Source of the DNA: Escherichia coli
Lineage (GTDB): Bacteria; Pseudomonadota; Gammaproteobacteria; Enterobacterales; Enterobacteriaceae
Reading direction: 5' to 3' (one strand)
Length of the DNA stretch: 30,887 bases
NCBI RefSeq assembly: GCF_003334765.1
Contig: NZ_QOWT01000041.1
How positions within the stretch are numbered: the stretch's first letter is position 1; every line of letters begins with the position of its first letter. This document shows positions 281-355 of this stretch, piece after piece. The notes under the pieces were generated by a model that saw nothing but the letters and a program-made list of their open reading frames with translations, was not told where the DNA came from and did no database searches. The position numbers and the translations under genes are program-made.

Positions 281-317
281 TACAATGCGGGCGAAAAATA
301 AGGATGCCCCGTTAGGG

Positions 318-355
318 GCGTTAGCTGAGTTTTTCGCGAAAAATTCAGCTAACGC
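318..355 (+). other. Near-perfect 17-bp inverted repeat (stem-loop) in the purH 5' leader
   Basis: GCGTTAGCTGAGTTTTT (318..334), loop CGCG, AAAAATTCAGCTAACGC (339..355); one mismatch in 17. No 3' U-tract on either strand, so not a classical intrinsic terminator. Confidence 0.5.

Follow-up and report, generated by a model that had tools for sequence, protein, structure and literature searches.

The 5′ leader of the purHD purine-synthesis operon of Escherichia coli contains a 17-bp hairpin which, judging from how it is conserved and how it varies across Enterobacterales, is very probably an undescribed control element of the operon. We analyzed the hairpin within a 30,887-nt stretch of E. coli DNA (contig NZ_QOWT01000041.1 of RefSeq assembly GCF_003334765.1; hereafter the window), positions 1-500 of which are identical to E. 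coli K-12 MG1655. The window covers the K-12 purHD locus beside rrnE, with purD after purH and the divergent rrnE promoters at the left end; subtracting a window position from 4,207,920 gives the K-12 position. The comparative evidence set out below, on covariation and on the strand under selection, makes us highly confident that the purHD mRNA leader forms this hairpin as a functional RNA structure under selection.

The purHD leader hairpin and its conservation

The core of the element, which we refer to as P2, spans 318..355 on the + strand (K-12 4,207,565-4,207,602), with arms at 318-334 and 339-355 and a CGCG loop at 335-338. It is the top-ranked short-range inverted repeat of the entire window. 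The initial annotation, made from the sequence of the window, had described a near-perfect 17-bp inverted repeat with one mismatch at this place. We confirmed the repeat and its loop; the supposed mismatch (G329/T344, the only non-Watson-Crick position) is a G·U wobble on the + strand and an A·C mismatch on the − strand. When folded as RNA, the segment 302-362 reached −29.7 kcal/mol compared to −14.9 ± 2.7 kcal/mol for dinucleotide shuffles (z = −5.55, with 0/200 shuffles as good), and the segment 290-400 gave a z-score of −4.17.

Just upstream of P2 is P1, a GC hairpin at 306..319 on the + strand (GCCCC/GGGGC, loop GUUA) that folds alone at −10.0 kcal/mol. This small hairpin had also been noticed earlier, at 307-320; its existence holds, and its position is shifted here by one base. 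G318 and C319 are common to P1 and P2, which makes the helices contiguous and sets them in competition for this pair of bases, and the 5′ arm of P1, CCCC (307-310), is complementary to the G-run of the purH Shine-Dalgarno sequence. The sequence downstream of P2, TCTCTGTAATAG, has no U-tract. It brings a pyrimidine-rich tail, UCUCUGUAAU (356..365, + strand), in which the UCU at 356-358 is invariant.

Sequence identity among E. coli genomes indicates that the element is under strong constraint within the species. Of 5,426 complete E. coli genomes searched with a 63-nt query, 5,420 contain the element. It is single-copy: each genome gives two BLAST places, one for either strand of the same palindrome. 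Over the leader (287-392), 5,393 of the 5,420 genomes reach at least 99% identity, compared to 4,131 genomes only over the wider 351-nt stretch 150-500.

To compare leaders across the order, we collected purH loci from two sources: one genome per species, scanned with the PurH N-terminus, and metagenomes, scanned with the PurR box and the −10 hexamer as anchors, both of which lie outside the hairpin. Together the scans yielded 113 distinct Enterobacterales purH leaders, in 97 of which the P2 arms could be anchored. Their layout is constant, running from the PurR box and −10 hexamer through a 12-25-nt spacer, usually P1, then P2, UCU and a 15-35-nt spacer to the Shine-Dalgarno sequence and the AUG. 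Longer leaders, with 249-291 nt from the PurR box to the AUG, occur in Siccibacter colletis (L023), Photorhabdus caribbeanensis (L037) and Yersinia nurmii (L030). Insertions upstream or downstream of the conserved hairpin account for the extra length; L023, for example, has about 120 nt separating P2 from the Shine-Dalgarno sequence.

We scored covariation at 16 basal P2 pairs in an alignment of 56 distinct trimmed leaders with register-anchored P2 arms (alignment A1). Pairing was found in 88.7% of the cells and double-sided changes in 10 of the 16 pairs, an amount of covariation matched by 0/500 shuffles. In slid controls, where the partner was moved by 1-3 columns, pairing fell to 29-41%. 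Stem position 7, for example, is G-C in Escherichia-type leaders, C-G in Serratia and Pantoea, and U-A or U·G in Yersinia and others, and position 12 is G·U, A-U or G-C. At position 8 the pair is C-G, G-C (Klebsiella-like) or A-U (Enterobacter-like and some Pantoea-like leaders), and Citrobacter-type leaders have C·C or C·U. In an Enterobacteriaceae alignment made with a covariance model (A3), double changes were present in 7/16 P2 pairs; P1 covariation was weak, with one pair showing a double change. The initial annotation had named a lack of conservation or covariation of the stem in related genomes as an outcome that would refute its reading; P2 proved to be both conserved and covarying.

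The P2 cells also contain information on the strand. On the + strand, G·U pairs number 88 and A·C pairs 25, an excess suggesting that the helix is selected in the sense RNA, the purHD mRNA. Neither a DNA cruciform nor an antisense RNA would produce this bias.

The tip of P2 is free to change, whereas its base and 3′ tail (UAACGC-UCU) are constrained in sequence. P2 loops are 4-7 nt long in Enterobacteriaceae, and among Enterobacterales the apex ranges from 4 to about 60 nt or more, with the 16-nt arm blocks separated by 6 to 57 nt and more. The P2 helix is prolonged by an extra 15-60 nt in Pantoea, Erwinia, Serratia, Yersinia, Cedecea and others. The base, by contrast with the tip, is conserved as GCGUUA-NN-UGA / UCA-NN-UAACGC, and the UCU tail (T41, C42 and T43 of the alignment) is invariant in all 56 trimmed leaders, where it is never CCC, though CCC would strengthen a plain helix. 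A P1-type hairpin is present in most lineages, with 3-9-nt loops of unrelated sequence and with stem variants such as CCUC/GAGG (L009) and CUC/GAG (L156). Enterobacteriaceae and Erwiniaceae leaders keep GGA(U/C) 5′ of P1, and in leaders without an adjacent P1 (L117, L153) AAGGA stands directly against P2, pairing with UCUUU. Because AAGGA abuts P2 in these P1-less leaders and GGA(U) sits just 5′ of P1 elsewhere, P1 gives the impression of a hairpin that was added within a continuous helix of earlier origin.

Long hairpins are also found outside Enterobacterales. Vibrionaceae purH leaders have a PurR box and a TAGAAT −10 hexamer followed by a long hairpin with a variable apex, about 30-150 nt upstream of purH. 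In nine hand-anchored sequences (L047, L054, L057, L058, L059, L066, L071, L077 and L078), the base of this hairpin is conserved as A(A/G)GGU.UUU.CCAAAA ... UUUUGG.AAA.A.CUU, and the lower stem has the same purine-rich and pyrimidine-rich strands as the enteric element, of the AAAGG:UCUUU type. Among the nine, 86% of cells are paired and double changes occur in 6/18 pairs, a count reached by 0/500 shuffles. The leaders of Oceanisphaera, Zobellella and Tolumonas likewise fold into long hairpins; folding of Pasteurellaceae purH leaders gave no long hairpin. The hairpins of vibrios and these other lineages may be either homologous to P2 or convergent.

Promoter context and rejected identities

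The initial annotation had placed the hairpins between the PurR box and the purH start, which our reading of the locus bears out; as possible roles it had proposed mRNA stability, protein binding or regulation beyond PurR. The purH start codon is at 388..390 on the + strand (K-12 4,207,532) and opens the reading frame 388..1977, which encodes PurH. The PurR operator (PUR box) of the purHD promoter, GCGCAAACGTTTTCGT, at 266..281 on the + strand, lies outside the RNA element and is the reverse complement of ACGAAAACGTTTGCGC, the motif assigned to purH-purD by chromatin immunoprecipitation on microarrays (ChIP-chip) (PMC3159470). It is kept at the same place in all purH leaders used. Abutting it is a −10 hexamer that we read from the sequence as TACAAT (281..286, + strand), and TACAAT or TAAAAT is found directly 3′ of the box in every Enterobacterales leader. 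As TACAAT abuts the PurR box and PurR sites usually lie between −35 and −10 (PMC3159470), we infer that purHD transcription starts at ~293-294, putting P1 at ~+13. The RefSeq records have no annotation at the hairpin element. Farther upstream, at 170-178 on the + strand, the purH-rrnE spacer has a perfect match to the DnaA-box consensus, TTATCCACA, with the purH promoter on one side and the rrnE upstream region on the other; it is the sole match in the window, in which about 0.7 would be expected by chance.

We considered a range of identities for the hairpin. A known RNA family, including the ZTP riboswitch, was rejected for want of a covariance-model match: an Rfam cmscan of 1-1000 at E ≤ 10 returned only a chance microRNA-type hairpin, at 23.8 bits compared to a gathering score of 76, and neither in the window nor in 14 related loci did the purH leader give a gathering-level match. 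Other parts of the window gave such matches, to a TPP riboswitch (11640-11740, + strand), sroH (17433-17593, + strand) and P26 (26929-26990, − strand), ordinary known features that are unrelated to the purH hairpin. A repeat element (REP/BIME, ERIC or MITE) was rejected because the hairpin is single-copy; a covariance model of the leader (R1) matched the purH leader only, in the window and in 80 loci. A tRNA or tRNA-like element was also rejected, as ARAGORN detected no gene in 1-1000; GGGGCGUUAGCUGAGUU has what we take to be a likeness to a tRNA 5′ end. As for an rRNA mimic, the 9-mer AGCUAACGC is common to the 3′ arm of P2 (345-353, + strand) and 16S rRNA (4007-4015 of the K-12 locus L001), which is at the level of chance as estimated for 9-mers in 11 kb of two-stranded sequence. 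In rrsE, this 9-mer is found as GGAGCUAACGCGUUAAGUC, beside GCGUUAAG, which resembles the 5′ arm of P2.

Transcriptional signals were examined in the same way. The statement in the initial annotation that the hairpins lack a U-tract and are not classical terminators held up: the tail UCUCUGUAAU has none, the terminator scan was empty on the + strand, and no RNA 3′ end listed in PMC7815308 falls in the purH 5′ untranslated region (UTR), on which grounds we rejected an intrinsic terminator or attenuator. The − strand does have a terminator-like score, for P1 followed by AUCCUUAUUU; there is nothing upstream to terminate, and the G·U bias favors the + strand. A boxA (NusB/NusE) site was rejected because E. 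coli GCTCTCTGTAA mismatches the consensus at positions 6, 8 and 9, and the boxA pattern finds the true rrnE boxA sites in L001 and not the purH leader. A DNA operator of a dimeric factor (PurR-, RbsR- or Cra-like) is at odds with the variable arm spacing and the inside-out half-sites.

Two potential upstream open reading frames were set aside as well. The mini-frame at 304-315 on the + strand (AUG CCC CGU UAG, encoding Met-Pro-Arg-stop) overlaps P1 and has no spacing from the Shine-Dalgarno-like AAGG, and AUG 304 is missing in many species, where, for example, GGAC or GGCG replaces GGAUG; it is probably not translated. The frame at 285-434 has its start inside the −10 hexamer.

Possible control of ribosome-binding-site access and rival explanations

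Two further features of the E. coli leader bear on how the element might work. P3, a small hairpin at 370..384 on the + strand (AAAUCC/GGAUUU, loop AGG), contains the Shine-Dalgarno sequence GGGGA (377-381). Enterobacteriaceae conserve the P3 sequence without covariation (four pairs are invariant and two depart only by unpaired cells), and the comparison speaks neither for nor against its pairing. Just 5′ of P1, the GGA at 302..304 (+ strand), part of the Shine-Dalgarno-like purine run AAGGAU, is a candidate partner of the UCU tail.

The same tail can extend P2 to 20 contiguous bp by pairing with G315-G317 (G·U, G-C, G·U), in competition with P1 for the G-run, and this extension is usually the dominant state in predicted ensembles. 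Both RNAalifold consensus structures, computed from two separate family-level alignments, combine the P2 extension with pairing of the P1 C-run to the Shine-Dalgarno G-run. For E. coli 293-390, the computed states are near equal: −33.2 kcal/mol for P1, P2 and P3 together and −33.3 kcal/mol for the P2 extension with CCCC:Shine-Dalgarno. The latter, which we term the closed state, is for many leaders the fold of minimum free energy. Alternatively, GGA 302-304 could pair with UCU to form a helix, P0, closing a three-way junction. In favor of P0, AAGGA directly adjoins the long helix in P1-less leaders and in vibrios; the energy model disfavors P0 in E. coli (−31.6 kcal/mol compared to −33.2 kcal/mol without it) and Serratia and Yersinia leaders lack the GGA, and we keep P0 as a possible alternative.

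Our tentative hypothesis, which we put forward as a possibility rather than as an established mechanism, is that the element acts after transcription start by controlling access to the purH ribosome-binding site through these competing pairings. Four mutually exclusive tracts would take part: CCCC (307-310), GGGG (315-318), UCU(CU) (356-360) and the Shine-Dalgarno G-run (377-380). In an open state, P1 would form (CCCC:GGGG) and the Shine-Dalgarno sequence would be left to the weak P3. In the closed state, the tail would take the G-run, lengthening P2 to 20 bp, and the freed CCCC would pair with the Shine-Dalgarno sequence. The long P2 would serve as a clamp that keeps the G-run and the UCU tail side by side, and candidate triggers for shifting the balance are the order of folding during transcription, a protein or a nuclease. 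An invariant but weak UCU, never CCC, fits a tract that is kept weakly paired or has several partners. Control of access by alternative pairing would thus explain the invariant weak UCU as well as the P1/P2 overlap and the recurrent consensus fold.

Several points weigh against this hypothesis. In folds to which 15-60 nt of coding sequence are added, the probability of CCCC:Shine-Dalgarno pairing drops from 0.72 to 0.01; P3 replaces it, and purH codons 3-6 become paired with the 5′ leader. (In the fold including coding sequence, GGAUG 302-306 and CGUU 310-313 pair with CGUCC 400-404 and AACG 395-398, respectively.) The metagenomic leaders L092, L117 and L153 have P2 and UCU with no adjacent P1 or C-run, suggesting that the universal core is P2 with the lower stem and not the CCCC tract. 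Because CCCC, GGGG and the Shine-Dalgarno sequence hardly vary, covariation is blind to the alternative pairings. Finally, a short stem would suffice for a switch, and the hypothesis leaves the observed minimum helix length of 17 (+3) bp unexplained. In the literature searched, we found no description of a purHD leader structure and no crosslinking and immunoprecipitation (CLIP) data; the sequence papers of 1989-90, which the search did not cover, may mention dyad symmetry.

Helix length is where a rival that we rank second, and judge possible if rather doubtful, performs best: P2, extended by GGG:UCU or stacked on P1, may be a double-stranded determinant recognized by RNase III or some other duplex-specific factor. 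Roughly two helical turns of duplex are the substrate of RNase III, which regulates several E. coli mRNAs via leader stems (pnp, rnc, adhE, proP). Although the tip turns over completely, the purH helix has stayed long in all lineages; the shortest form has 17 bp and the 3-bp extension, others have 25-45 pairs, and in Vibrionaceae leaders the hairpin is longer still. An enzyme that measures duplexes would set just such a lower limit on length and leave the apex free, and this rival best explains a helix that never falls below about 20 pairs and has a free tip. Cleavage would separate the 5′ strand, with its Shine-Dalgarno-like purines, from the 3′ strand, yielding a purHD mRNA with a 5′-monophosphate and a free pyrimidine tail and with changed decay or translation. 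Set against a duplex criterion of ~20 bp or more, however, the E. coli helix has 17 bp, or 20 with GGG:UCU (other lineages are longer), and 20 bp including three G·U pairs is at the lower limit for a substrate; nor would the enzyme need the strict sequence conservation of the stem base. The purH leader is absent among the RNase III sites listed in the accessible part of PMC5371410, which is weak evidence, as purHD would be PurR-repressed if rich medium was used; the sole site listed there between purH and rrsE, 4,207,874, is one of the rRNA precursor. The conserved stem base could alternatively form, with the UCU tail, the operator of a trans-acting RNA-binding protein such as CsrA, ProQ or a purine/folate-pathway protein feeding back on purHD, an explanation that we regard as unlikely. 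The lower 11 pairs and the tail are conserved in sequence, with UUA/UAA, UGA/UCA and UCU invariant or nearly so and pairs 7, 8 and 12-16 covarying; given the variable apex, any recognition must be at the base. Furthermore, the P1-P2 domain lies between two GGAU motifs (302-305 and 379-382), which its folding would bring close to each other, and CsrA dimers bridge two GGA sites. Yet we found no binding data in the literature searched, the 5′ GGA is absent from Serratia and Yersinia leaders, and the sequence points to no partner.

An improbable set of alternatives holds that the palindrome acts as DNA, either as a transcription-factor site or as a cruciform under rrnE supercoiling, or that it is neutral and folded only to spare the ribosome-binding site. 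In favor of a role as DNA, the perfect-looking palindrome is about 235 bp from the rrnE P1 promoter, its arms presumably resemble a LacI-family half-site (TCAGC.AACG), and further purHD regulators are on record. These are PhoP and RbsR, listed in RegulonDB-derived tables (PMC10100675). However, the arm spacing of 4 to >60 nt among species would be intolerable for a dimer on duplex DNA, the half-sites are inside-out for a LacI-type operator, and G·U, a mispair in DNA that appears as A·C on the other strand, is favored 88 to 25. Were the insert functionless, some lineages should have lost it; instead, the hairpin is kept across the order and has an analogous counterpart in Vibrionaceae. Highly improbable, in our estimation, is action during transcription, as a boxB-boxA-like Nus-factor site or as a pause or attenuation hairpin. 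The invariant tail CGCUCU corresponds to the first bases of boxA, and Serratia-type and Pantoea-type leaders read GCUCUUUAUAU and CGCUCUUA, respectively, i.e., CGCUCUU(U)A; in rrn leaders, too, a hairpin is followed by boxA. Against this, E. coli and all Enterobacteriaceae read GCUCUCUGUAA, with three mismatches to the gammaproteobacterial consensus, including C at position 6, and the first boxA bases, G and C (G354, C355), are paired within P2. That consensus is GYTCTTTAANA, and a C4T/T6C double change abolished SuhB recruitment at suhB (PMC5725501). The lack of a U-tract speaks against an intrinsic terminator, and PMC7815308 lists no 3′ end in the purH 5′ UTR.

The purHD operon is treated as a textbook PurR-only operon, and a leader RNA structure selected across a bacterial order would imply a second, post-transcriptional layer of purHD control that is apparently uncharacterized. 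PurH consumes 5-aminoimidazole-4-carboxamide ribonucleotide (AICAR, or ZMP) and 10-formyl-tetrahydrofolate, and the alarmone ZTP was first found in enterics. We know of no ZTP sensor in enterics, and the purHD leader is an obvious place to look for one. As a long shot, the hairpin could be the core of an ancient purH riboregulator of Enterobacterales and Vibrionales that couples purHD expression to purine or one-carbon status. A protein or nuclease might then read the stem base and UCU tail upon ZMP/ZTP or formyl-folate shortage, providing a second control layer, independent of PurR, in bacteria without the ZTP riboswitch. The element is precisely defined and easily mutated (P2, the UCU tail and P1), and its natural compensatory changes suggest the mutations to make.

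Comparison with known systems

RNA control upstream of purH has a precedent in many other bacteria in the form of the ZTP riboswitch (pfl motif, RF01750). The enteric element is like it in gene context only, being a plain hairpin without conserved internal loops or a pseudoknot. As a stable hairpin near an mRNA 5′ end, it also recalls the ompA-type 5′ stabilizers. These work only when almost flush with the 5′ end, whereas ~12 unpaired A-rich bases would precede P1 from the inferred purHD start. The rrn and lambda nut sites (boxB and boxA) are similar to the purH leader in that its hairpin is followed directly by CGCUCU, and the leader adjoins an rrn operon; unlike these sites, the E. coli sequence fails the boxA consensus with three mismatches, its motif is partly paired, and there is no boxC.

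The RNase III-processed stems of pnp, rnc, adhE and proP share with the purH element a long, near-perfect 5′ UTR duplex upstream of the ribosome-binding site and a variable tip. The purH duplex differs in having only 17-20 bp in E. coli and in the sequence conservation of its stem base, which is not required in those substrates. The remaining comparison is with pyrC and pyrD, nucleotide-biosynthesis genes that in enterics have leader hairpins sequestering the Shine-Dalgarno sequence. By analogy, the purH element would be another cis-acting hairpin in the short 5′ UTR of a PurR-regulon gene, in which alternative pairing, without an aptamer, may set access to the ribosome-binding site. In pyrC, however, the switch is set by the transcription-start nucleotide and the hairpin itself contains the Shine-Dalgarno sequence, whereas the main purH helix is far longer and ends 21 nt upstream of it.

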